Source: a virus. Taken from it: a DNA stretch of 36,779 bases. The stretch's first letter is position 1; the number at the start of each line of letters is the position of its first letter. Below, piece after piece: positions 7,979-28,210 of this stretch. Under the pieces are notes generated by a model. It was not told where the DNA came from. It did not search any database and was given only the letters and a program-made list of their open reading frames with translations. The stretch lies in UHGV virus genome UHGV-0182470. The stretch is one strand, 5' to 3'. The position numbers and the translations under genes were made by a program.

Positions 7979-8551
7979 TCAGGGGGATTCATTACTCTTA
8001 TTTGCCGGAAATTTTCTATAAATTGTGGAAACACCCACATCAAAAATCAGTGCAATACGCTGTCTTGATTCTCCGGCCTCGAGTAAGCGTCCAATCTGTG
8101 CCCACTGTTCGGTAGTCAACTTAGGACGGCGTCCACCTACTCTGCCTTTGGCGCGAGCTGCAGCAAGCCCCGCCCTGGTACGTTCAACTATCAGTTCGCG
8201 TTCCATTTCAGCCAGGGCACCCATGACATGAAAAAAGAAACGGCCCATTGGGGTACTGGTATCAATACTGTCAGTCAGGCTTCGGAAATTCACACCTCGC
8301 TGGCGCAACTCTTCTATCAACGTAACAAGATGCCGCATACTGCGCCCCAACCTGTCCAGCTTCCAGACAACCAGCGTGTCTCCTGCCGATAGTGTCCTGA
8401 GCAGTTTTTTCAGCCCCGGTCTGTTGGACTTAGTGCCACTGATTTTGTCCTCAAAAATCCGCTCACATCCCGCGCAGTTCAGTGCATTACGTTGCAAATC
8501 GGTGTTCTGGTCATTTGTTGACACGCGTACATAGCCAATAAGCATGATCAA
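7979..8551 (-). CDS. Serine recombinase, DNA invertase (Hin/Gin/Cin/Pin family)
   Basis: 190-aa ORF MIMLIGYVRVSTNDQNTDLQ...GDTLVVWKLDRLGRS...C-terminal HTH; catalytic Ser motif YVRVST; lies 50 bp from an invertase crossover-type site. Confidence 0.9.
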   Translation of the reverse strand: MIMLIGYVRVSTNDQNTDLQRNALNCAGCERIFEDKISGTKSNRPGLKKLLRTLSAGDTLVVWKLDRLGRSMRHLVTLIEELRQRGVNFRSLTDSIDTSTPMGRFFFHVMGALAEMERELIVERTRAGLAAARAKGRVGGRRPKLTTEQWAQIGRLLEAGESRQRIALIFDVGVSTIYRKFPANKSNESP

Positions 8552-8600
8552 TCCCCTGAATAAAAACCGGGGATGATGCCAGTTAGCCGTTATCTCTGCA

Positions 8601-8626
8601 TTTTCATAAACGTTGGTTTGGGAGAA
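8601..8626. repeat. Invertase crossover site, left (hix/gix-like)
   Basis: TTTTCATAAACGTTGGTTTGGGAGAA; its reverse complement matches the first 14 nt of the site at 10056-10081 exactly (TTCTCCCAAACCAA). Confidence 0.75.
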
Positions 8627-8956
8627 GCCAGATATGTCATTCAGCGAGGAGCTAATGTCAATGGAGCATGGATACGCTGGTCAGATGGTGCAATAGAAGT
8701 ATTTGGAACTGGTGGTTCCAATGATAATGGGCTGGCTAAAGTCGTTTATCCAATTGCACTACCTAAGCTTTCACGTTTTATCAGCATAGCGGAAAGAATA
8801 AGAACAGATTACGAGGCCACACCTAATAACGTTCACGTTTCAATGATCGTGGATGACCAGGTCAGTAATACAGGTTTTTATGTCCGCTGCCAGATGTACG
8901 ACGGAAGACCATCAACAAGTGCTTTTTCCTGGAGAGTTTATTGTGCGCCTGTTTAA
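8601..8956 (+). CDS. Silent alternative tail-fibre C-terminal segment (no own start; fused to H constant part after inversion)
   Basis: Open frame from the left crossover site (...VGLGEARYVIQRGANVNGAWIRW...RVYCAPV) in the same phase as GLGEA in H. Confidence 0.6.
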
Positions 8957-9140
8957 TCCTGTTACTTTGACTGAAGTAATCCCCGGTCTTCATGACGTGA
9001 CCGGGGCTGTGGAATTACCAGAAGATAACTGGTTTTTTACTGCATCTGAAATCCCTGAAGGAATGGAAATATCTGTTAACGAGAAGGGCGAACCCATTCT
9101 GATTGAGATTAAACCATCTCAGGTGGAACTGGCCAGATAA
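8943..9140 (+). CDS. Alternative small tail-fibre assembly/chaperone-like ORF (silent orientation)
   Basis: GTG start with GGAGAG RBS 6 nt upstream, overlapping the end of the alternative fibre segment; 65 aa; assignment by position only. Confidence 0.4.
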   Translation: MRLFNPVTLTEVIPGLHDVTGAVELPEDNWFFTASEIPEGMEISVNEKGEPILIEIKPSQVELAR

Positions 9141-9375
9141 CCCCCGGCGCGGTGCTGGTATCTGCTTCCATCACCGCGTCGATATTACCAACATCATATT
9201 CAGTCATTTCCGGTTCCGGTGGTGCTATAAACTCTCCGTCAGAATAGAACCAACCGACGCCTGCATCTATATGATCAACATTTATAATTTCGCAATTAGA
9301 GAATAAATCACCCTCTCCATCCCAGATAATAATATTTTTCACCACGCCATGTTCAATCAGAGCAAAATTACTCAT
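9109..9375 (-). CDS. Small tail-fibre assembly/chaperone-like protein (expressed orientation)
   Basis: 88-aa ORF starting at the stop of H (ATGA overlap), inside the invertible segment; assignment by position. Confidence 0.5.
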   Translation of the reverse strand: MSNFALIEHGVVKNIIIWDGEGDLFSNCEIINVDHIDAGVGWFYSDGEFIAPPEPEMTEYDVGNIDAVMEADTSTAPGVIWPVPPEMV

Positions 9376-12659: not shown

Positions 12660-12966
12660 CGTTATTACGCCGCCCGATCAGCTCCACCACCATTGAACCG
12701 TCAAAATTGCTATTGATGGTGATGGAATCCAGCGTCAGCCGTGGCTCCCAGCGACTCAGCGCCACATACACTGCCGACATGACCTGCAGGCGTAATGCCG
12801 GATTTTGTGGCTGGTCTATCAGTGTCGACAGCAGGGAACCATATTCACGACGGGCAATGCGGCTACCCTGCGGTGTCAGTAGAATGTCCCGCACCGACTG
12901 ACGCAGATGGTCAATATCAGTAATGGCTTTACCGCTGGTATTGTTCATCCCGCTATAAAGCGTCAT
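12607..12966 (-). CDS. W: Baseplate protein W (gp25-like)
   Basis: 119-aa ORF, position and size match P2 gpW. Confidence 0.85.
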   Translation of the reverse strand: MTLYSGMNNTSGKAITDIDHLRQSVRDILLTPQGSRIARREYGSLLSTLIDQPQNPALRLQVMSAVYVALSRWEPRLTLDSITINSNFDGSMVVELIGRRNNGVPVSLSVSTGAENGSD

Positions 12967-13541
12967 ACCGGGCCTCCGGTTGTGTCGCCGCCTTTCAGGA
13001 CGCCAGTATGCTGATGTGCATCAACCACAATTCCGTTAGAACTCATTGCACCGCCGCCCTGGGTAACACCACCATTGATCACTACTTCGCTGTTAATGCG
13101 TGTGCGGTCAGCCTCCAGTACAAACTCACTGGTTTTCATGGTGATATTGTCGGCGGTCTCAATGACCATTGATTTGATGCCCCTGACATACCAGCGCCCG
13201 GTGGCGGGTTCGTATTCAAACCAGCCGCCGTCAGGATGCTCTGTCACGCAGGCATCCGCCGACGTCGACGGTGGTGCGAACTGATTCGAATAGATGGCGG
13301 GCAGCGCAAACGCGGTTTCAAGATTTCCGCCCAGACTCAGCAGCACCACCTGCTCACCTTCCGATGGTTTCCACCATGTGCGGGCATTCCCGGCACGCAG
13401 CGTCAGCCAGCTGATCCAGTTGGTTTCGAGGTCGCCAGTTTTCACCCGACACAGCCAGTTTGCCCTGTCCACTTCGGTGACTACACCTGTGCGGATCAGG
13501 TTGGTGATAAGGCGCATGATTTCGGTTAATTGTGCGTTCAT
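12963..13541 (-). CDS. V: Baseplate spike/hub protein V
   Basis: 192-aa ORF MNAQLTEIMRLITNLIRTGVV... resembling P2 gpV. Confidence 0.85.
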   Translation of the reverse strand: MNAQLTEIMRLITNLIRTGVVTEVDRANWLCRVKTGDLETNWISWLTLRAGNARTWWKPSEGEQVVLLSLGGNLETAFALPAIYSNQFAPPSTSADACVTEHPDGGWFEYEPATGRWYVRGIKSMVIETADNITMKTSEFVLEADRTRINSEVVINGGVTQGGGAMSSNGIVVDAHQHTGVLKGGDTTGGPV

Positions 13542-13761
13542 AGGGAAAGGTTGCCATCAATAGCAAGCAGTAGACAGCCTTTGTAATTGTATTAGACATA
13601 GAACAAATGCCTTTCAATGGTCTGCGTTAGAGCATTAATACGTTGCAAAAGGTCGAATGACGTTGCGCAAGTTAAGAAGTTCAATGCTCTTAAAAAAGCA
13701 CTTGAAAGCTACGCCTTTAATTATTAAAAGCCAATTAATTTAGGCAGTTACTATGTTATCT

Positions 13762-13793
13762 TTGACACAAAAGATGTTTATTGACAATATATA
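13762..13793 (+). promoter_or_regulatory. Putative sigma70 promoter of the DUF262 cargo gene
   Basis: TTGACA at 13762-13767 followed ~17-18 bp later by AT-rich -10-like hexamer (CAATAT/AATATA); ATG at 13820 with AAGGAG RBS. Confidence 0.35.
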
Positions 13794-13819
13794 AATTCAA
13801 TCTAACAAGGAGAAAAATT

Positions 13820-15595
13820 ATGCCAAATGAAAATCTTGATATTGACTCAAGGACTACCGAGCAATTATACGAATGGTATTTGCAAGGAAATTTGATAGTC
13901 AATAGACGTTATCAAAGGAAACTTGTATGGTCTCTAGAAGAAAAGACTTCTTTAATATCTTCTATGCTGCAACAATATCCTATTCCGTTATTATTATTTG
14001 TTACCATCAATGAACAAAGAGAAATATTGGATGGAATGCAAAGATTAGAAGCAATTATGAGCTTCATCGAACAGAGATTTTCATTAGATGGACAATATTT
14101 TGATTTGGACTCTATAGCTTTAACAAAACAACTTAAAGATAATGGAACTTTAATTCAGAAAGAACCAATCCTTTCCCGTGATTCTTCAGCAATTATTGCA
14201 CGTTATCGATTTGCAATATCAGAATATAGCTCCACAAATGAAAATATTGACGAAGTATTCAGACGAATAAACTCAAACGGGAAGATTTTATCCAAACAAG
14301 AATTACGTAGTGCAGGAACAGTTAGTAACTTCTCTGAACTGGTCAGATCGATATCAACATCGATCAGAGGTGATACTAGCCATTCTGACATTATGAATCT
14401 CCAGCAAATGCACAAAATTTCAATCAGTAACGATAGATTGGAGTACGGGGTAAATATCGATAACCACTTTTATATAAAACATCATATTTTAACAAGACGA
14501 AGTATTCGTGATTCTGATGACGAGGAATTGATAGCCAATATCCTTGCATATATCAGTCTAGAAGAAAAACCCACATCTGGGTCAACTTCTCTCGACACAT
14601 TCTATGGTCAAGGAAACTCCTCTCATGCTCATGGTGTCAGACAGCAATTAGAGTCTTTCATTCAAACCAATAACGCTGCCACTATTAAGCAGAATTTCAT
14701 AGCTGTATATGAATTAATTACAAGCCTATATGACGGAAAAAATGATACTTTTAGAAGCCATATTTTAGGGGAGGATAATTCATCTCAAGAATGCCCTCGT
14801 TATTATCAAGCTGTGTTTTTGTCTATTTATGAACTTCTTTTCAACCAAAATATGCAATTAATTGATAAAGAAGGTTTATTCTCGCAATTAAAAAACACTG
14901 GCAATACCATAATTATGGTTACCGATGGTGGCCGCTGGGCTGCAAGCACTCGTGAAAAAAGTGTTAATGATCTTGTTGCATTAATAAGTCGCTACTTCCA
15001 ACCTGCTCCTCAAAAGTATGTGAATCATGCTTGGGTAACTGAAATTCGCAATCTATTAACAAATTCTAGAACTGAACAACCAAGTTATGATTTCAAACAG
15101 GGGTTCTTTAATTTATCAGGTAAAAATGAATTTGATGATGAATGTTTAAAAGGAATATTACAAACTTGCGTAGCAATAAATAATATTGGAAAAAGCGCAA
15201 AAGGCTATATTTTAGTTGGTATTGCCGAAAATAAATTAACCGCAGATAGAATTCAACATTTATATGGAGTAAATTCAATTGAGTTCAATGGGTTCTATAT
15301 AAACGGAATTGATCATGAAGCAATGTTAGTCTCTGGTAGCATTGATGGTTACTTTATGTTAATAAAACAAAAAATACAAGGATACAATTTCACTGAAACT
15401 CTAAAACAGCAGATACTTAAGAATATTGAGTTTTGCTCTTACAATGGCTTACACATACTCAAGATAACTATTCAGAGCACAGGTCAAATTTGCGACTTTG
15501 AGAATATGTTTTATATCAGACAAGGCTCATCGACTGATCCAGTTACGGATACACAAAAAATCTCAGCCCTATTTAACTCTTACATGAACAGCTAA
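13820..15595 (+). CDS. DUF262 (ParB/GmrS-like N-terminal domain) protein, candidate defence cargo gene
   Basis: 591 aa from ATG 13820 (AAGGAG RBS; ORF track start 13781 is upstream in frame); N-terminal region ...RRYQRKLVWS...ILDGMQRLEAI matches the DGQQR signature region of DUF262; visibly AT-rich relative to flanking phage genes; opposite strand to S and V. Confidence 0.7.
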   Translation: MPNENLDIDSRTTEQLYEWYLQGNLIVNRRYQRKLVWSLEEKTSLISSMLQQYPIPLLLFVTINEQREILDGMQRLEAIMSFIEQRFSLDGQYFDLDSIALTKQLKDNGTLIQKEPILSRDSSAIIARYRFAISEYSSTNENIDEVFRRINSNGKILSKQELRSAGTVSNFSELVRSISTSIRGDTSHSDIMNLQQMHKISISNDRLEYGVNIDNHFYIKHHILTRRSIRDSDDEELIANILAYISLEEKPTSGSTSLDTFYGQGNSSHAHGVRQQLESFIQTNNAATIKQNFIAVYELITSLYDGKNDTFRSHILGEDNSSQECPRYYQAVFLSIYELLFNQNMQLIDKEGLFSQLKNTGNTIIMVTDGGRWAASTREKSVNDLVALISRYFQPAPQKYVNHAWVTEIRNLLTNSRTEQPSYDFKQGFFNLSGKNEFDDECLKGILQTCVAINNIGKSAKGYILVGIAENKLTADRIQHLYGVNSIEFNGFYINGIDHEAMLVSGSIDGYFMLIKQKIQGYNFTETLKQQILKNIEFCSYNGLHILKITIQSTGQICDFENMFYIRQGSSTDPVTDTQKISALFNSYMNS

Positions 15596-15638
15596 TCAAT
15601 CGCCATCTCCACAGGAGCTGGCTTATGGATAAAAACAA

Positions 15639-15672
15639 AAGACGAGAGGGTTATTTAAACCTCCTCGTCTTT
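15639..15672. terminator. Bidirectional rho-independent terminator between DUF262 gene and S
   Basis: AAGACGAGAGGG ... CCTCCTCGTCTT hairpin flanked by A-tract upstream and TTATTTTG downstream. Confidence 0.6.
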
Positions 15673-16117
15673 ATTTTGATAGCTCCTCCTTTATGCTCAT
15701 AATAATATTTTCTTCTGTTTTATAAGATAAGCCCAATAAAGTACGTTGCGGATATTTCGCGATTAAACCTTTTTTATTTACGCGATCACGCAGACCGTAA
15801 TGGTGAACACGGGCAATGCGCTGTACCTTACCTTCAAACTGTACGCTGGCAGAATCGGCGCTGGCGGCAGTTTTCAGGTATTTTGTGGTGCGCAGCTTTG
15901 CAAACATCTGACGTTTGATACGCCCCTTTTTACTGCGTGCTGTTACCCGTCGCGGTTCATAACTACTGCCATCTGGATTGCGCTGCATCCTGATGTTCTT
16001 CTGTTGTGTCCTGCGCAGTTCCTGCGCCAGTTGGCGCATCATGCGGCTTCTTGCGGCTGGTTCCAGATTCGCCAGCAAGGCACTCAGCCAGTCGTCAACT
16101 TTCTGCAGTTCAGCCAC
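15671..16117 (-). CDS. S: Tail completion protein S
   Basis: 148-aa ORF, position after R; P2 gpS-like. Confidence 0.85.
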   Translation of the reverse strand: MAELQKVDDWLSALLANLEPAARSRMMRQLAQELRRTQQKNIRMQRNPDGSSYEPRRVTARSKKGRIKRQMFAKLRTTKYLKTAASADSASVQFEGKVQRIARVHHYGLRDRVNKKGLIAKYPQRTLLGLSYKTEENIIMSIKEELSK

Positions 16118-16562
16118 GTTTCACCGTCCACATTTCTTCAGGTTCATCAGGTTCCGCTACCGCTTCAACGTTCGACACGCTGCCGTCAGTGCTGACCAGC
16201 ACACGTTCCGTCAGTTGCAGGTTAAGGCTGATATCACAGACATCGTTACGCAGAATATCCACCTCAAAGGTAAATAGTTTTTCCCGTAACGCCGGGTTAT
16301 TGATGGCATCGGGCTGGTTATCCCGCAGCCACAGCAAAACCGGGGCCATCAGCAGATTCTGGTCGCCGCTGAAATCCTCAATCACCGCGTTCAGGGTGTA
16401 ACGGTACTCCCACGACATGGAGCTGGCCCCCGTGGCAACCAGCGAACCGTTATCCACAAACAGATGCAGTTTGTCCGGGTTATTGCGGACATAAGGCACC
16501 GCTTTACTGAGGGCGTGGCGCAGGGATTGTGGTTTGTTCACTGTTTCGCTCCTGACACGCAA
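16110..16562 (-). CDS. R: Tail completion protein R (true start probably internal to the tracked ORF)
   Basis: 150-aa ORF preceding S; overlaps end of lysC. Confidence 0.8.
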   Translation of the reverse strand: MRVRSETVNKPQSLRHALSKAVPYVRNNPDKLHLFVDNGSLVATGASSMSWEYRYTLNAVIEDFSGDQNLLMAPVLLWLRDNQPDAINNPALREKLFTFEVDILRNDVCDISLNLQLTERVLVSTDGSVSNVEAVAEPDEPEEMWTVKRG

Positions 16563-23011: not shown

Positions 23012-24039
23012 TGGGAAAGAGTAAGAAAAACCGCGCTGCGGCGACGAAACAGCTCCAGCTTAAAAACCAGACTACAGCCGAAGCATTCAGCTTCGGCGAT
23101 CCCGTTCCTGTTCTGGACCGCCGAGAACTGCTGGACTATGTGGAATGCGTACAGATGGACCGTTGGTATGAGCCGCCCGTCAGCTTTGACGGACTGGCGC
23201 GCACCTTCCGCGCTGCCGTGCATCACAGTTCCCCGATTGCAGTAAAGTGCAACATTCTGACCAGTACCTATATCCCTCATCCGCTGCTCAGCCAGCAGGC
23301 TTTTTCGCGTTTTGTGCAGGACTATCTGGTATTTGGTAACGCCTACCTGGAGAAACGCACGAACCGATTCGGTGAAGTTATCGCTCTTGAGCCTGCGCTG
23401 GCAAAATACACCCGACGCGGATTAGACCTGGATACCTACTGGTTTGTGCAATACGGTATGACAACCCAGCCGTATCAGTTCACGAAAGGCAGCATTTTTC
23501 ATCTGATGGAACCGGATATTAATCAGGAGATCTACGGCCTGCCCGGTTATCTTTCTGCCATTCCGTCAGCCCTGCTCAACGAGTCCGCCACGCTGTTCCG
23601 CCGGAAGTATTACATTAACGGTAGTCATGCAGGCTTCATCATGTACATGACCGATGCCGCGCAGAACCAGGAGGATGTGAACAACCTCCGCAACGCGATG
23701 AAAAGTGCCAAAGGTCCGGGTAACTTCCGCAACCTGTTTATGTACTCGCCTAACGGCAAAAAAGACGGGCTTCAGATTATCCCGCTATCAGAAGTCGCAG
23801 CGAAGGATGAATTTCTTAACATCAAGAACGTGAGTCGGGATGACATGATGGCAGCGCATCGTGTGCCACCACAAATGATGGGGATAATGCCTAGCAATGT
23901 TGGGGGGTTTGGGGATGTGGAGAAGGCGGCAAATGTGTTTGTGCGAAATGAATTATTACCGTTGCAAAAAAGGATGCGTGAAGTAAATGACTGGTTAGAA
24001 CAAAAAATTTTGCGATTTGAGCCATATTCTTTGGGATGA
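23008..24039 (+). CDS. Q: Portal protein Q
   Basis: 343-aa ORF coupled to P (ATGA overlap). Confidence 0.9.
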   Translation: MMGKSKKNRAAATKQLQLKNQTTAEAFSFGDPVPVLDRRELLDYVECVQMDRWYEPPVSFDGLARTFRAAVHHSSPIAVKCNILTSTYIPHPLLSQQAFSRFVQDYLVFGNAYLEKRTNRFGEVIALEPALAKYTRRGLDLDTYWFVQYGMTTQPYQFTKGSIFHLMEPDINQEIYGLPGYLSAIPSALLNESATLFRRKYYINGSHAGFIMYMTDAAQNQEDVNNLRNAMKSAKGPGNFRNLFMYSPNGKKDGLQIIPLSEVAAKDEFLNIKNVSRDDMMAAHRVPPQMMGIMPSNVGGFGDVEKAANVFVRNELLPLQKRMREVNDWLEQKILRFEPYSLG

Positions 24040-24096
24040 TTTCTCTTGTAAATCAACATGCTTTGCTGTTCGATAGAACAAACCAAAATTTGATTA

Positions 24097-24557
24097 GTGG
24101 GAAAAGTTCATGGTACAGCAAGTATGGTTTTTTTTAAGGCAATTGAGAAAGACGATCTTAGATACTGGGGAAATGATAGTTATCCCGATGACTCATCAGT
24201 TTTCTATCGCTATGACAGTTTTGTAGCGAATCACAAAAATGTAAAAGACGGTGATATTATTATTATTACCAACAGAGAAAATATTTTAGGTATATCTGTT
24301 ATTGAAAAATTAGAAACACAGAGCATTAATAAGAAGCGTAACAAATGTATTAACCTAGACTGCAAAGCAAAAAAATTCTTCAAAGGAAAACTATAAAATC
24401 AGAGTGGCGTTGTGATAATGGCCATGAATTTGATGAACCCAGAGTGGTTTTTGAGCCAGCTAAAGAATTTATAGCATACTGCGGCAACCAGTACCGTAAA
24501 TTATCCAATATTACAATGTCACAACTTATAGATGAAACTCCACGCTACAATGGGTAA
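24097..24557 (+). pseudogene. Zinc-ribbon-containing ORF split by a frameshift in an A7 tract (24097-24396 in frame 0, continuing to 24557 in frame +2)
   Basis: Frame-0 ORF ends ...KCINLDCKAKKFFKGKL; the same region in frame +2 reads ...KKILQRKTIKSEWRCDNGHEFDEP...YCGNQY... One extra A in the A7 run at ~24370-24376 would join them into one ~153-aa protein with a Cys/His zinc-ribbon-like pattern. Confidence 0.45.
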
Positions 24558-25070
24558 ATGTCCATCCAAGAAGTTAACTATCAATGGGCTGTTGCTTTGC
24601 TTACCGCCCAACATACTATTATTCTGGAGCTCAACGCCAGCGAAGCTGATAAAGACACCCCCACTTTAATGGGTGAAGATCAACGGCAAATTGTAGAACG
24701 GCAAATAAAACAACGAAGTGGGCAAAAAACATTTCGCGACCAGCTATTAAAATCAAATCCTACTTGTGCGGTTACGGGCTGTAAGCTTGTTGATATTCTT
24801 GATGCTGCTCACATTAATGTATATCGAAACGATAGTCACAATCATATTAGCAATGGATTATTGCTCAGAAGTGACATTCATACTTTATATGACCTAAATC
24901 TTTGTGCTATAAACCCGATAACAAAAACCATTCATTTTTCAGTGGAAGCCTTGGAAAATGGATATTCGAAATTCGAAGGTTTAAAAATAAATACCCAACA
25001 CAACATAGCAATAAAACCACTATTAACAAGATGGCAGTTATTAAAATCTCAAAACTCTATTGATATATAA
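24558..25070 (+). CDS. HNH endonuclease-domain protein
   Basis: 170 aa; motifs RSGQKTFRDQLL...CAVTGC...LDAAHI...NGLLLRSDIHTLYD fit the HNH (restriction-type) signature; ATG abuts the TAA of the upstream ORF (TAAATG); AT-rich. Confidence 0.7.
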   Translation: MSIQEVNYQWAVALLTAQHTIILELNASEADKDTPTLMGEDQRQIVERQIKQRSGQKTFRDQLLKSNPTCAVTGCKLVDILDAAHINVYRNDSHNHISNGLLLRSDIHTLYDLNLCAINPITKTIHFSVEALENGYSKFEGLKINTQHNIAIKPLLTRWQLLKSQNSIDI

Positions 25071-25085
25071 TAAATAGCGACAACC

Positions 25086-25117
25086 GAAGGGAGCGTTTAT
25101 AATTAAAAGCTCCCTTT
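25086..25117. terminator. Bidirectional hairpin terminator between convergent cargo genes
   Basis: GAAGGGAGC ... GCTCCCTTT stem flanked by A/T-rich sequence. Confidence 0.5.
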
Positions 25118-25126
25118 AGCAGGAAA

Positions 25127-26155
25127 TTAGAGCACTAGGGGATCAGTGACCCATGCTTTATTATGGTTTTCTCGATAACAATCATAAATTAATAAATCCG
25201 TTCTTGTATCCGGTGGAAGTTCAATTTCAGGAATGTAATAACTTGCTGGATTGCTATTATCTAATGAAATTGAAAAGTTTTGATTAACGATCGTTGATAG
25301 AGACGTATTGGCTTCCAATAAGCTAAACGGGCCATATTTTACACAGTACATTACAACACAAGCAGCAACTGCATCCATTACATTTTCTAAAGTGGAAAAG
25401 TGGAATGCTCCTGATCTATCATGTTTAGTTTTATTATATGCATTATACCATGACAAAGATGTTGTAGGGGTACTTGCATTCCACCCATCAAAAGGTTTGA
25501 AATGCCTTAATCCGTCATAATTCAAATATTGAATTTTATATTCAGACAAATAACACTTATCTAATAATTTCACATAATCATTTGTGGAGTATCGACCATT
25601 TGAACGAGATAAATTCGAATTACCAATGATTGACACCCATTGATTTTCAACCTCAGTACAAGCAAGAATTAATAGCTCTCTACATTTATGACTGTAAGAA
25701 ATCAAACCATGGGCACTTGGTTCTACATATAGAAAAATATCATCGAGTTTTTCTATCAAAACTCTTAGAGCTTGCTCTGTTGCTCTTTTTTCAAACTCAT
25801 CGATACCTAATGCTGTTTCTGTATCATTGACATAATATAAGGATGGCCGCCACACTCCCCTAGTTACATGTCCAATTTCATTATCTAAAGGAGATATGTT
25901 CTGAGCCCCAAATACTCTCCGAACCCAATCATTGAGAGTTCCACTTCGTTGCTCAATAACAGTTAACCCAACTGATATTACATTAAATCCCACGTCACGC
26001 CCATACAGATGCACAAAATGACTTGTTGTTTCATAAGCGTAACCGAATTTGTGCTTTTGATGTACTGTTGTTTCAAAATTAGGAATGCGTGTATGAGTGT
26101 TTTCGTACCAGATTCCGTTCATCATCACCTCTAATGAGAGTCGATTATATTTCAA
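25127..26155 (-). CDS. Hypothetical 342-aa AT-rich cargo protein
   Basis: Long uninterrupted ORF on the minus strand in an AT-rich island between Q and the putative cos site; no confident family assignment (contains an RSGAFH, i.e. R-x4-H, motif). Confidence 0.6.
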   Translation of the reverse strand: MKYNRLSLEVMMNGIWYENTHTRIPNFETTVHQKHKFGYAYETTSHFVHLYGRDVGFNVISVGLTVIEQRSGTLNDWVRRVFGAQNISPLDNEIGHVTRGVWRPSLYYVNDTETALGIDEFEKRATEQALRVLIEKLDDIFLYVEPSAHGLISYSHKCRELLILACTEVENQWVSIIGNSNLSRSNGRYSTNDYVKLLDKCYLSEYKIQYLNYDGLRHFKPFDGWNASTPTTSLSWYNAYNKTKHDRSGAFHFSTLENVMDAVAACVVMYCVKYGPFSLLEANTSLSTIVNQNFSISLDNSNPASYYIPEIELPPDTRTDLLIYDCYRENHNKAWVTDPLVL

Positions 26156-26233
26156 TGGATTATATGGATGATACTACACTAAGTTGTACCTATGACAGAT
26201 ACTATTTTAGCCACTTCAGGCATACAGCGCGCG

Positions 26234-26252
26234 CTCGTATCCCCGCCACGCC
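26234..26252. other. Putative cos cohesive-end site (P2/186-like)
   Basis: Reverse complement reads GGCGTGGCGGGGATACGAG; first 13 nt match the 186 cos sequence GGCGTGGCGGGGA as I recall it; GC-rich island in AT-rich surroundings. Confidence 0.4.
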
Positions 26253-26583
26253 TGCTCGCTTTATGTAGTGGTTTTCATGCACCTGCATGACATGAGTAAA
26301 AGCCCGCCAGTTCTGGCAGGTGTCTGCAAAAACGATCCTCAATCGATCATGCGATTTCATGCAGCATAGTCATGCACTGCCAAGGGAAGCGTTAATCCGT
26401 ATCTGATAACCGCTTGAAAAACGAAACATACTGGTTTACAACAATAAAAATCCGCTGTGAGCGAAGAGCAGAAGTTACAGCATAAAAAGCAATATGGTTG
26501 TGTACCATAGAGCTAAACATTTAAACAAGTTATGTGCTGTATCGATATACTGTGACTCAATATCTAAAACATGGAGGGTGAAT

Positions 26584-27057
26584 ATGTCTTCTTCTACATC
26601 ACAACTACAGCATGTTACAACATCGACAACAGTAAACTCGTCAAGTTACTCCCCCGTCAAATTGCAAGATCATGAAGCAGCATCGAATTCTGGACCTGGT
26701 GGACATACAATTAGAAGACATGTTGGCAAGGATGCCAATTACCTGATAGATCGATTAGATCGATTTCCTAAACTCTGTGTAGCTTCAACATTTACAAACT
26801 TATCAGTAGCAGAACTATCAGCTACCGAGTGGTTCAATTCATTTCTTATGGAATTTACAGAGTGGTATAAAGATCCTAATCGCACAGAGGTTAGATTTTC
26901 AAAGGAATTAGACATTGAACAGGATGTAGGCACTTACGTTAAACGCGATAATCCAAACAATATATTGACTGCAAAAAGAATTAATTTAGTCATGAAAATT
27001 GAAAAGTTTAACGGAATGCCTCATTTCATCCTCACTGCATATCCTGTTAAGGGGTGA
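26584..27057 (+). CDS. Hypothetical protein, toxin-like (Ser/Thr-rich N-terminal linker + compact C-terminal domain)
   Basis: ATG 26584 with GGAGGG RBS (track ORF starts upstream at 26494); 158 aa; motif GGHTIRRHVGK; translationally coupled to the next gene. Confidence 0.6.
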   Translation: MSSSTSQLQHVTTSTTVNSSSYSPVKLQDHEAASNSGPGGHTIRRHVGKDANYLIDRLDRFPKLCVASTFTNLSVAELSATEWFNSFLMEFTEWYKDPNRTEVRFSKELDIEQDVGTYVKRDNPNNILTAKRINLVMKIEKFNGMPHFILTAYPVKG

Positions 27058-27061
27058 TAAT

Positions 27062-27721
27062 ATGTCAAAAGAATATACTAAACTAGATAATTTTATACGG
27101 TCCTACTTCAATCAAGATACCGTATGCGAACTTGAGTCAGATGATCTTGGAAAGATTATTGATTTATATCTTTCTGATGTTGGTCAGAATGGCGTAAAAG
27201 AACTTCTAATTGATATTTCAAAGTTTATTAATGATAATAAAAATCAAAGCCTTGATAAATATTTTGAGAATAAGTTCAGCTCTTATCTTGACATAACTCC
27301 AGTTGAAAAATTCATCTCACTCTTGAATTCAAAATATCTCGAAAAATATCCTGAGATAAAATCCACTGCCGTGAAACATTTTGTATTTTCTACTACACCA
27401 AAGAGAACACAGCATAAACCAAGAATAATTAAAAGATTTCCTTCAATGGTTCCAGCACTTAGTTTTGAGTTTTCATCAGAACGAATCGCTGATTCCAATG
27501 CTTTGTTTCGAGGAAAAGTTTTTAAGCGTAACAACATTAAGCGCGGAGCCAGAAAACCATATTATATACTGGTAAACATCAAACCAAAACAAGAGGCGGC
27601 TATAAAGGTTTCTTTATCTAAGAGTAAGAGTCGTCAACGTCTTTACGATTCACTTAAAAAATCCATTGAAGCTACAGATATTGTTTTGCAAAATAATAAA
27701 GTCGAAAAAATGAAATCATAA
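27062..27721 (+). CDS. Hypothetical protein, immunity/partner-like, basic C-terminus
   Basis: ATG 27062 with AAGGGG RBS, 4 nt after stop of upstream gene; 220 aa; Lys/Arg-rich C-terminal third. Confidence 0.6.
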   Translation: MSKEYTKLDNFIRSYFNQDTVCELESDDLGKIIDLYLSDVGQNGVKELLIDISKFINDNKNQSLDKYFENKFSSYLDITPVEKFISLLNSKYLEKYPEIKSTAVKHFVFSTTPKRTQHKPRIIKRFPSMVPALSFEFSSERIADSNALFRGKVFKRNNIKRGARKPYYILVNIKPKQEAAIKVSLSKSKSRQRLYDSLKKSIEATDIVLQNNKVEKMKS

Positions 27722-27730
27722 CGTGAAGAA

Positions 27731-27757
27731 AATAGCCACTCCTAGTGGCTATCTTTA
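27731..27757 (+). terminator. Rho-independent terminator after the two-gene module
   Basis: ATAGCCACT / AGTGGCTAT perfect 9-bp stem, 3-nt loop, followed by CTTTAATT. Confidence 0.6.
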
Positions 27758-27941
27758 ATTGTTATCCCAAAACCATCTCCTAGGGAGGTGGTGATTGATT
27801 TATAAGATAGTTAAAACCAAAAACATTTGACAGTAGTAAAGAGAAAGTTGCGTCCATCAGTTGAAGTCAAAGCATAAAGCGGACGATCACTTATCAAAAT
27901 GGCCGCCCACCTAACTCCTCGTTTCACTCGTGCTAAAACTA

Positions 27942-27971
27942 GCCCCCATCAGAATAAATCCTCCTGGGGGC
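27942..27971 (-). terminator. Rho-independent terminator after dinI-like gene
   Basis: GCCCCC...GGGGGC hairpin immediately downstream (minus strand) of the stop at 27980, followed by a U-rich tract on the minus strand. Confidence 0.5.
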
Positions 27972-27979
27972 AACGTTTC

Positions 27980-28210
27980 TTAATGCAGCCAGCTGTCGTC
28001 TTCCCACACCTTCTGCATAATTTTCATCACTTGTTTTCTTTCTTCGTCCAGTTGCAGTCCGGTCAGTTCCACACCGTTAGAGCTACCTTTGCGGATACGA
28101 ATTACCGTTTTGGGATACAGGGGGCGCAGATTGCGGTAAAGCTCGGATTCAAGGGCGTCCAGTGTAGACTGGCTAACCTTCTGCTCTTTATCGATCATTA
28201 TTTCAATGCG
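27980..28210 (-). CDS. dinI: DinI-family protein (ORF track extends to 28285; start at MRIEIMI)
   Basis: MRIEIMIDKEQKVSQSTLDALESELYRNLRPLYPKTVIRIRKGSSNGVELTG...KIMQKVWEDDSW aligns along its length with E. coli DinI as I recall it. Confidence 0.8.
   Translation of the reverse strand, partial: RIEIMIDKEQKVSQSTLDALESELYRNLRPLYPKTVIRIRKGSSNGVELTGLQLDEERKQVMKIMQKVWEDDSWLH

Follow-up and report, generated by a model that had tools for sequence, protein, structure and literature searches.

Known systems and the locus under study

Prokaryotic Schlafens were recently catalogued by Perez Taboada et al. (Nat Microbiol 2026; preprint July 2025), who described 5,930 of these proteins, defined their catalytic motif as Ex4(E/D)xK and tested Enterobacterales representatives in MG1655 under native promoters (PMC13056530). 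Fusions with a DUF262 domain constitute their class pSlfn7, which represents 1.8% of the catalogue (PMC13056530). One such protein, EcoSlfn7 (the DUF262-Slfn protein of Escherichia coli UC4224, assembly GCA_025369975.1), made a wide variety of phages plate less well under its native promoter, with a 538-fold effect on T7 (PMC13056530); the preprint version names T3 and T7 as its targets. RorSlfn5, once activated by phage, cleaves tRNA in the anticodon arm and is inactivated by the E15A/D20A mutation, and human Schlafens are also described as tRNA-cleaving (PMC13056530). On the DUF262 side, a DNA-binding domain named ParBDB follows DUF262 in NsnA, SspE and GmrSD (PMC12065111). Here, we analysed a DUF262-Schlafen gene located between the tail gene S and the baseplate gene V in the virus genome UHGV-0182470; the window is this whole stretch of DNA, 36,779 nucleotides long. 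In our opinion, the block that carries the gene is likely to be an orf30-slot cargo cassette of a 186/P2-family E. coli prophage, encoding a one-protein DUF262-Schlafen (pSlfn7) anti-phage defence.

An AT-rich block in the orf30 slot

The prophage of the window is a 186-type member of the P2 family, with CI, CII, Fil and DinI-like genes, and its integration site adjoins ssrA in E. coli. The queried 2.1-kb block is 100% identical to the chromosome of strain VCSW8. Between V and S, the GC content is about 0.33 (0.31-0.37 in 500-nt windows over 13501-15500), against 0.55-0.59 in both flanks, and this interval contains only one long open reading frame (ORF), on the plus strand. The AT-rich block with a single 591-amino-acid (aa) gene opposite to its neighbours, from which the first-pass annotation of this DNA had started, is therefore present where it had been placed. 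The features of the locus are as follows.

12963-13541, minus strand: gpV, baseplate assembly protein V, a conserved gene that bounds the slot on the left (ORF list; RefSeq 'phage baseplate assembly protein V'; Pfam Phage_base_V on homologous genes)
13560-15779, no strand: exchangeable cassette of 2,220 bp, which takes in the pV activator site, the cargo gene with its promoter region, the terminator that this gene shares with the late operon, and the 3' end of S (blastn against the empty-site locus L010)
13588-13605, no strand: TGT-N12-ACA dyad (TGTATTAGACATAGAACA), presumably the site at which an Ogr/Delta-type activator acts on the late promoter pV, with its centre 55 bp upstream of the V ATG
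13762-13790, plus strand: putative sigma-70 promoter of the cargo gene, TTGACA (13762-13767), 17-nt spacer ending in TGA (extended -10) and CAATAT (13785-13790); by eye, tentative
13807-13812, plus strand: Shine-Dalgarno sequence AAGGAG, 7 nt before the ATG at 13820 (from the sequence)
13820-15595, plus strand: DUF262-Schlafen (pSlfn7-type) gene, 591 aa and a stop codon at 15593-15595 (ORF; RefSeq coding sequence WP_073461753.1; Pfam; PADLOC; structure model)
15638-15672, both strands: bidirectional intrinsic terminator, common to the cargo gene (plus) and to the late operon that ends with S (minus) (inverted repeat, RNA fold, T-runs on both strands; a P2 terminator is annotated at the equivalent place)
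15671-16117, minus strand: gpS, tail completion/virion morphogenesis protein, the right anchor (ORF; RefSeq; Pfam Phage_tail_S on homologous genes)

The ribosome-binding site and the bidirectional terminator that had been proposed for this block were both recovered. The terminator hairpin, which was located by repeat search and folding after a terminator scan had missed it, has a 14-bp stem with T-runs on each strand and abuts the stop codon of S. Its fold energy is -30.8 kcal/mol over a 105-nt stretch (z = -3.74 in comparison with shuffles). The promoter proposed for the gene is tentative. The TTGACA and TGA elements are visible by eye and are kept in a diverged Enterobacter cassette, where the -10 hexamer is CAACAT, but a consensus scan made no call.

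The first-pass annotation had also assumed that S and V are adjacent in P2 and that the insertion site is not one of the classic P2 accessory loci. The first point is corrected by the P2 reference record, in which S is followed by a rho-independent terminator, by the non-essential Orf30 (261 aa) on the opposite strand, by the binding site of the pV activator and by V; the S-V spacer of 940 bp has a GC content of 0.35 versus 0.57 in the flanks. The second point is at variance with Lynch et al., for whom the orf30, TO and Z regions are the three common sites of foreign genes in P2-like phages (PMC3091744). Phage R18C has a different ORF in the orf30 slot. From the P2 record and this earlier work, the insertion site in the window is therefore the classic orf30 slot and not a new one. 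In this slot, the DUF262-Slfn gene is oriented as orf30 is in P2 and has the same signals around it: it lies between the S terminator and the pV site, opposite to S and V, and it is AT-rich and absent from close relatives.

Domains, motifs and fold of the protein

Two Pfam domains were detected in the 591-aa protein, GmrSD_N/DUF262 (PF03235; aa 26-165, E 1.7e-17) and SLFN_AlbA_2 (PF04326; aa 419-575, 27.5 bits for a cut-off of 25.3). When all matches with E <= 1 were considered, only one more was found, a sub-threshold DUF7602, and DUF1524/HNH was absent from these matches. The RefSeq name 'GmrSD restriction endonuclease domain-containing protein' thus fits the N-terminal half only. NCBIfam gave no match for the protein. 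With PADLOC, the models found were Menshen NsnA (3.3e-23, aa 9-348) and PD-T4-2_A (1.4e-17, aa 10-181). The peptides on which the first-pass annotation had based a DUF262 signature (RRYQRKLVWS, DGMQRLEAI) and a resemblance to AlbA_2/Schlafen domains (LKGILQTCVAINNIGKSAKGYILVGIAEN) are all within the translation, and both assignments are borne out by the Pfam matches. The protein can be divided into three parts.

13838-14314, plus strand: ParB/sulfiredoxin-like DUF262 domain, aa 7-165, with invariant QRxxxW (Q32, R33, W37), DGxQR (D71-R75; nt 14030-14044) and FxxxNxxG (F147, N151, G154)
14315-15031, plus strand: middle helical region, aa 166-404 (NsnA match up to aa 348; model mostly helical; conservation profile)
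15032-15592, plus strand: Schlafen/AlbA_2 nuclease domain, aa 405-591, with the motif E419-x4-D424-x-K426 (nt 15074-15097)

Conservation was assessed from an alignment with 36 homologues, which are 37-89% identical and come from Enterobacterales, Vibrio, cyanobacteria, Paenibacillus and Pseudomonas. The protein had been said to carry no recognisable nuclease motif in its middle and C-terminal parts. The Schlafen motif Ex4(E/D)xK is nevertheless present as E419-QPSY-D424-F-K426 and is invariant in 36 homologues out of 36. In addition, all of them have E500, and either D or E at position 470. In the middle region, D234-E235-E236 is invariant, while its segments aa 261-320 and 341-400 are the least conserved parts of the protein. 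The mean pairwise identity is highest in the DUF262 domain (57%, versus 42% for the middle and Schlafen parts). Part of the middle region is probably a ParBDB domain, by analogy with NsnA, SspE and GmrSD.

The AlphaFold model is confident (predicted local distance difference test, pLDDT, 86.8; predicted template modelling score, pTM, 0.83). Its N-terminal part matches BrxU (9.0), SspE (7.7), DndI (5.9) and sulfiredoxin/ParB folds (5-6). The C-terminal 190 residues have a Schlafen/AlbA_2 fold and match SAMD9-AlbA_2, SLFN12 and SLFN11. A search of the PDB by sequence only with the full-length profile retrieved only a weak match to the N-terminal part of BrxU. The domain identity and the fold of the protein are thus established, as is the integrity of its invariant motifs, and PF04326, Ex4(E/D)xK and PF03235 are found in the same polypeptide, as in pSlfn7.

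Distribution of the gene family

The gene was found in 28 of 5,426 complete E. coli genomes, with at least 98.5% identity. All these copies are chromosomal and two of them are interrupted by the insertion sequence (IS) IS1. In the E. coli genomes, the exact protein is without exception encoded in the S-V slot, and this includes one genome whose prophage is degraded. In this degraded prophage (L096, 1844-2722), V and D form a fusion ORF and the baseplate/tail-fibre/sheath region is lost; the DUF262-Slfn gene is intact.

More broadly, more than 1,750 homologues were detected, and those listed with the best scores are for the most part full-length proteins (about 590-600 aa) from several phyla. 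The Enterobacter and Cronobacter homologues share 88-89% identity with the protein of the window, and the Enterobacter one that we examined (89%) also lies in an S-V slot. More distant homologues occupy other sites. A Serratia P2-like prophage homologue (68%) is located between the portal gene and gpA, in the cos-adjacent hotspot of Rousset et al., and a Vibrio prophage homologue (59%) between the integrase and cI, in the Vibrionaceae hotspot of the same authors. A paralogue is also carried by IncFII plasmids, downstream of pemIK (L002, 4289-6061; L003, 4001-5311), with about 66% identity at the protein level and 69% at the DNA level. This plasmid paralogue was found in about 800 of the 5,426 complete E. 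coli genomes, full length in about 105 of them (at least 80% of the gene aligned) and truncated in about 700. In one example of truncation, a resistance region bounded by IS1 and IS26 cuts the gene after about codon 430, and the Schlafen domain is removed. The recurrent residence of the family in phage and plasmid defence hotspots is therefore an observed feature, and its members pass between several hotspots of phages and IncF resistance plasmids that are common in E. coli.

Variable cargo of the S-V slot

The content of the slot was surveyed in 80 IMG/VR loci retrieved with the gpV of the window (96-100% identity) and 80 retrieved with the gpV of P2 (94-100% identity). The slot is empty in 111 of the 157 evaluable loci. 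The 46 others are occupied by at least 20 cargo families. The two sets gave the following counts.

186-type gpV set: 79 evaluable loci, 59 empty (68-bp spacer) and 20 occupied, by 12 unrelated AT-rich cassettes of 0.6-2.3 kb
P2 gpV set: 78 evaluable loci, 52 empty (66-bp spacer) and 26 occupied, by P2-type orf30 in 16 and other cargo in 10

Nearly all cassettes of the 186-type set are on the opposite strand. As the slot is empty in most related prophages, the DUF262-Slfn gene is established as single-gene cargo, as had been proposed. Several other cargo genes have known defence models. A complete PARIS system (L040, 505-2803) was identified with PADLOC by AriA (7.6e-39) and AriB (4.1e-22), and a complete Pycsar system by PycC (1.3e-128) and PycTM (7.6e-29), in one 2018-bp S-V junction among loci L098-L177. 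A SIR2-like protein (L066, 4617-6001) matched LmuA/ThsA models (8e-22), and PADLOC further detected two PDC-S59-like ATPases and one PDC-S33-like protein, which correspond to candidate systems. For over half of the slot cargo families scanned, PADLOC gave no match. Further cargo consists of several membrane proteins and ATPases to which no defence function is assigned. Recent hotspot papers on P2-like phages deal with the old/tin, Z/fun and tail-cI loci and do not cover the S-V slot. Its use as a defence hotspot thus seems under-reported, although its variability is old knowledge.

Boundaries of the cassette and the pV activator site

With blastn, the homology between the window and the empty-site locus L010 is restricted to 12842-13559 and 15780-16300, and the 159 bp found in the empty-site prophage at the position of the cassette have no homology to it. 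Because homology ends at 13559 and resumes at 15780, the exchanged unit takes in the last ~36 codons of S. This 3' part of S (15671-15779; last ~20-36 codons) is AT-rich and cassette-specific. Past a conserved LLG, each cargo type has its own C-terminal tail of S. The boundary of recombination is thus internal to an essential tail gene, and the C-terminus of gpS tolerates much variation. No convincing direct or inverted repeats, as signs of transposition or site-specific insertion, were found at the flanks of the cassette. Boundaries within S and beside V argue for exchange by homologous recombination in the flanking genes. From these comparisons, the cassettes look like units swapped via recombination in S and at the start of V, each of which appears to keep the S-operon terminator and the late V-operon promoter intact.

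In 14 junction variants out of 14, including the empty one, exactly one TGT-N12-ACA dyad is centred 54-57 bp upstream of the V ATG, and the sequence around it is unrelated among these variants. The position of the dyad in the window agrees with the annotated pV activator site of P2, centred ~55 bp upstream of V. The gene encoding gpV has no Shine-Dalgarno sequence, and in the P2 record the transcription start of the V operon is the first base of the V coding sequence. The mRNA of the V operon thus appears leaderless across the family.

Proposed function and competing explanations

The first-pass annotation had described the gene as a candidate defence system, which agrees with published experiments on the same architecture: anti-phage activity has been established by others for E. 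coli EcoSlfn7 (PMC13056530). For the protein of the window, we infer the trigger, the NTPase (nucleoside triphosphatase) switch and the tRNA target from its likeness to known systems. In a lysogen, the cargo gene would be transcribed from its own promoter, convergently with S. The sensor of infection and the switch would both reside in the N-terminal ParB-like DUF262 NTPase with its adjoining helical region. From the analogous proteins SspE, GmrSD/BrxU and Menshen NsnA, a feature of the invading phage DNA or a nucleotide would be the most likely cue. Sensing would free the C-terminal Schlafen nuclease (E419, D424, K426 and the acidic residue 470), which would cut RNA, most likely the anticodon arm of tRNA as RorSlfn5 and human Schlafens do. 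Translation would then halt and the burst of the superinfecting phage would fall, to the benefit of the lysogen and its prophage.

Three other explanations were considered. The RefSeq name suggests type IV restriction of the GmrSD/BrxU/SspE kind, in which DUF262 senses modified DNA (hydroxymethylcytosine (hmC), glucosyl-hmC or phosphorothioate) and the C-terminal domain cuts DNA; the emphasis that had been put on modification sensing goes in the same direction and finds no support. However, the protein has no DUF1524/HNH domain at the Pfam threshold given above, and its C-terminal domain folds as Schlafen/AlbA_2 and bears the Schlafen RNase motif. T7 and T3 are not known to carry hypermodified DNA, and T7 (T3 and T7 in the preprint) is where the tested E. 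coli DUF262-Slfn protein was most active. Type IV restriction is therefore very unlikely. The gene could also be selfish or neutral cargo without a defence role, either a toxin-like addiction module or a decaying passenger gene, and the position of the plasmid paralogue beside the pemIK addiction module, its truncation by IS elements in most plasmids and the interruption by IS1 of 2 of the 28 prophage copies would fit such a role. Moreover, ~30% of prokaryotic Schlafen genes are without defence neighbours (PMC13056530). Nevertheless, the listed full-length homologues are alike in length and their motifs are invariant across phyla, a sign that an active enzyme is kept under purifying selection. 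Four known types of hotspot harbour the gene, the cassette has no antitoxin-like partner gene, and the DUF262-Schlafen architecture has published anti-phage activity, so that we regard purely selfish or neutral cargo as extremely improbable.

The third explanation retains a defence role and bears on the effector. The AlbA_2 domain would not be a tRNase but would bind or cut DNA or another RNA, or be a binding module, and toxicity would come from NTP depletion or from DNA clamping by the ParB-like domain. Perez Taboada et al. determined no substrate or mechanism for pSlfn7 (PMC13056530). The best structural match of the C-terminal domain, 7ksp, was deposited as 'SAMD9 DBD with DNA', that is as a DNA-binding domain, so that the substrate could be DNA or another RNA, and the NCBI names of related fragments are 'AlbA family DNA-binding' or 'RNA-binding domain-containing'. 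On the other side, E-x4-D-x-K and the acidic residue 470 do not vary even between evolutionarily very distant homologues, a pattern that favours catalysis over a role in binding only, and the SAMD9 AlbA_2 domain was later reportedly found to be a tRNA-Phe anticodon nuclease. Both the characterised prokaryotic Schlafen and human Schlafens cleave tRNA (PMC13056530). A defence protein without tRNase activity thus seems to us unlikely.

Like the absence of a published pSlfn7 substrate and the deposition of 7ksp as a DNA-binding domain, several other observations weigh against a one-protein pSlfn7 defence cassette. The PF04326 score barely exceeds its threshold, and a sequence-only search of the PDB with the C-terminal profile retrieved no Schlafen, the matches being chance ones (e.g. 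a blue-light photoreceptor and GRASP). The link to Schlafens therefore rests on the Pfam hidden Markov model, the motif and the fold. With the consensus promoter scan, no plus-strand match was found upstream of 13820 and the matches in the region were not above those in shuffles. From the 50,697 deposited phage genomes searched by megablast and tblastn, no homologue was retrieved; the gene was seen only in prophages and plasmids. In E. coli, the family comprises at least two lineages, one borne by prophages and the other by IncF plasmids, which are ~66% identical, and the likeness to EcoSlfn7 considered here is one of architecture. Strain UC4224 is absent among the 28 near-identical genomes and among the 60 listed of 847 plasmid-paralogue records. 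Finally, at most two DUF262-Slfn picks were tested and activity was reported for one (PMC13056530), so that the activity of a given homologue on a given phage panel is not guaranteed.

The reading of the block as an orf30-slot cassette encoding a pSlfn7 defence protein may be extended, with considerable doubt. The S-V slot would then be a full fourth defence hotspot of the P2 family, with cassettes swapped whole (S tail, terminator, cargo and private pV site), and pSlfn7 would combine a ParB-type NTPase sensor of DNA with a translation-shutoff RNase. If this were true, the detection of phage DNA would be answered by cleavage of tRNA rather than DNA, a pairing not shown for any system. Apart from this extension, a P2/186-family prophage carries, as ready-made cargo, a bacterial Schlafen related to the human antiviral tRNases. 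The gene also offers a convenient natural system for asking what DUF262 senses and how the Schlafen nuclease switches on, two questions left open in the 2026 paper. The slot survey also suggests that small defence systems could usefully be sought at the orf30 locus, which has been little mined.

Other features of the prophage

The known cos-adjacent hotspot of P2, flanked by the portal gene and the DinI-like gene/gpA, is occupied in the window by a second AT-rich block (24000-28000; GC 0.32-0.42). This block contains the following genes.

24097-24396: 99-aa protein
24558-25070: HNH_2 endonuclease
25127-26125, minus strand: 332-aa protein
26584-27057: orphan CdiA-CT RNase A-like toxin domain (PF18431, 4.9e-20)
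27062-27721: CdiI_2 immunity protein, directly after the CdiA-CT toxin domain

The last two form a toxin-immunity pair without a delivery domain and without a PADLOC match. Elsewhere, a serine recombinase (Cin/Gin-type invertase; 7979-8545) adjoins short ORFs for tail fibre and tail-fibre assembly on both strands (~8576-9375), and together they presumably form an invertible host-range segment. Between the ssrA attachment end and ogr, a hypothetical protein of 160 aa (203-685) has a weak PADLOC match to the candidate system PDC-S48 (1.8e-07) and no Pfam match.

Comparison with known systems

The cassette resembles the orf30 region of P2 in its whole arrangement (S, bidirectional terminator, opposite-strand AT-rich gene, pV activator site and leaderless V). 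The two proteins are unrelated: P2 Orf30 has hydrophobic segments and no PADLOC match.

With GmrSD, BrxU and SspE, the protein of the window shares an N-terminal ParB-like DUF262 domain with DGxQR, followed by a helical domain, and the organisation of a defence in a single polypeptide. In these systems the effector is a DNase of the HNH-type DUF1524 family, whereas the protein of the window has a Schlafen RNase-type domain instead. As it lacks DUF1524, the domain that defines GmrSD, the protein was not counted as a GmrSD member, although the N-terminal DUF262 with its DGQQR-type NTPase motif is present. NsnA of Menshen and protein A of PD-T4-2 are the best PADLOC matches and appear to have the ParB-DUF262 and helical sensor module in common with our protein, which carries an additional nuclease domain in comparison with NsnA. 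Menshen needs the NsnB ATPase (ABC) and the NsnC effector encoded next door, whereas the cassette of the window consists of one gene with the effector fused to the sensor module. PD-T4-2 also needs a second gene. As the partner genes are absent and the gene is alone between S and V, membership in Menshen and PD-T4-2 was rejected.

RorSlfn5, from Raoultella ornithinolytica, shares with the protein of the window a Schlafen effector with E-x4-D spacing and the logic of sensor and effector in one protein. The arrangement is different, since the nuclease of RorSlfn5 is N-terminal and its C-terminal Ig-like sensor recognises the T5 tail assembly chaperone, while in the protein of the window the nuclease is C-terminal and the sensor is presumed to be a ParB-like NTPase. 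Furthermore, the N-terminal DUF262 domain is the most conserved part of the family, which is the reverse of the pattern in pSlfn5.

The closest described system is pSlfn7, with its member EcoSlfn7. The P2 S-V location and the mechanism of the class are not described in the work that defined it (PMC13056530). The likeness extends to the two Pfam domains in one polypeptide, the Ex4(E/D)xK motif, an E. coli host, a single gene and, presumably, its own promoter. The domain combination, which had been considered unusual, is thus an already named and experimentally supported class (2025-2026), and the gene of the window is not a new kind of system but one that fits this class.

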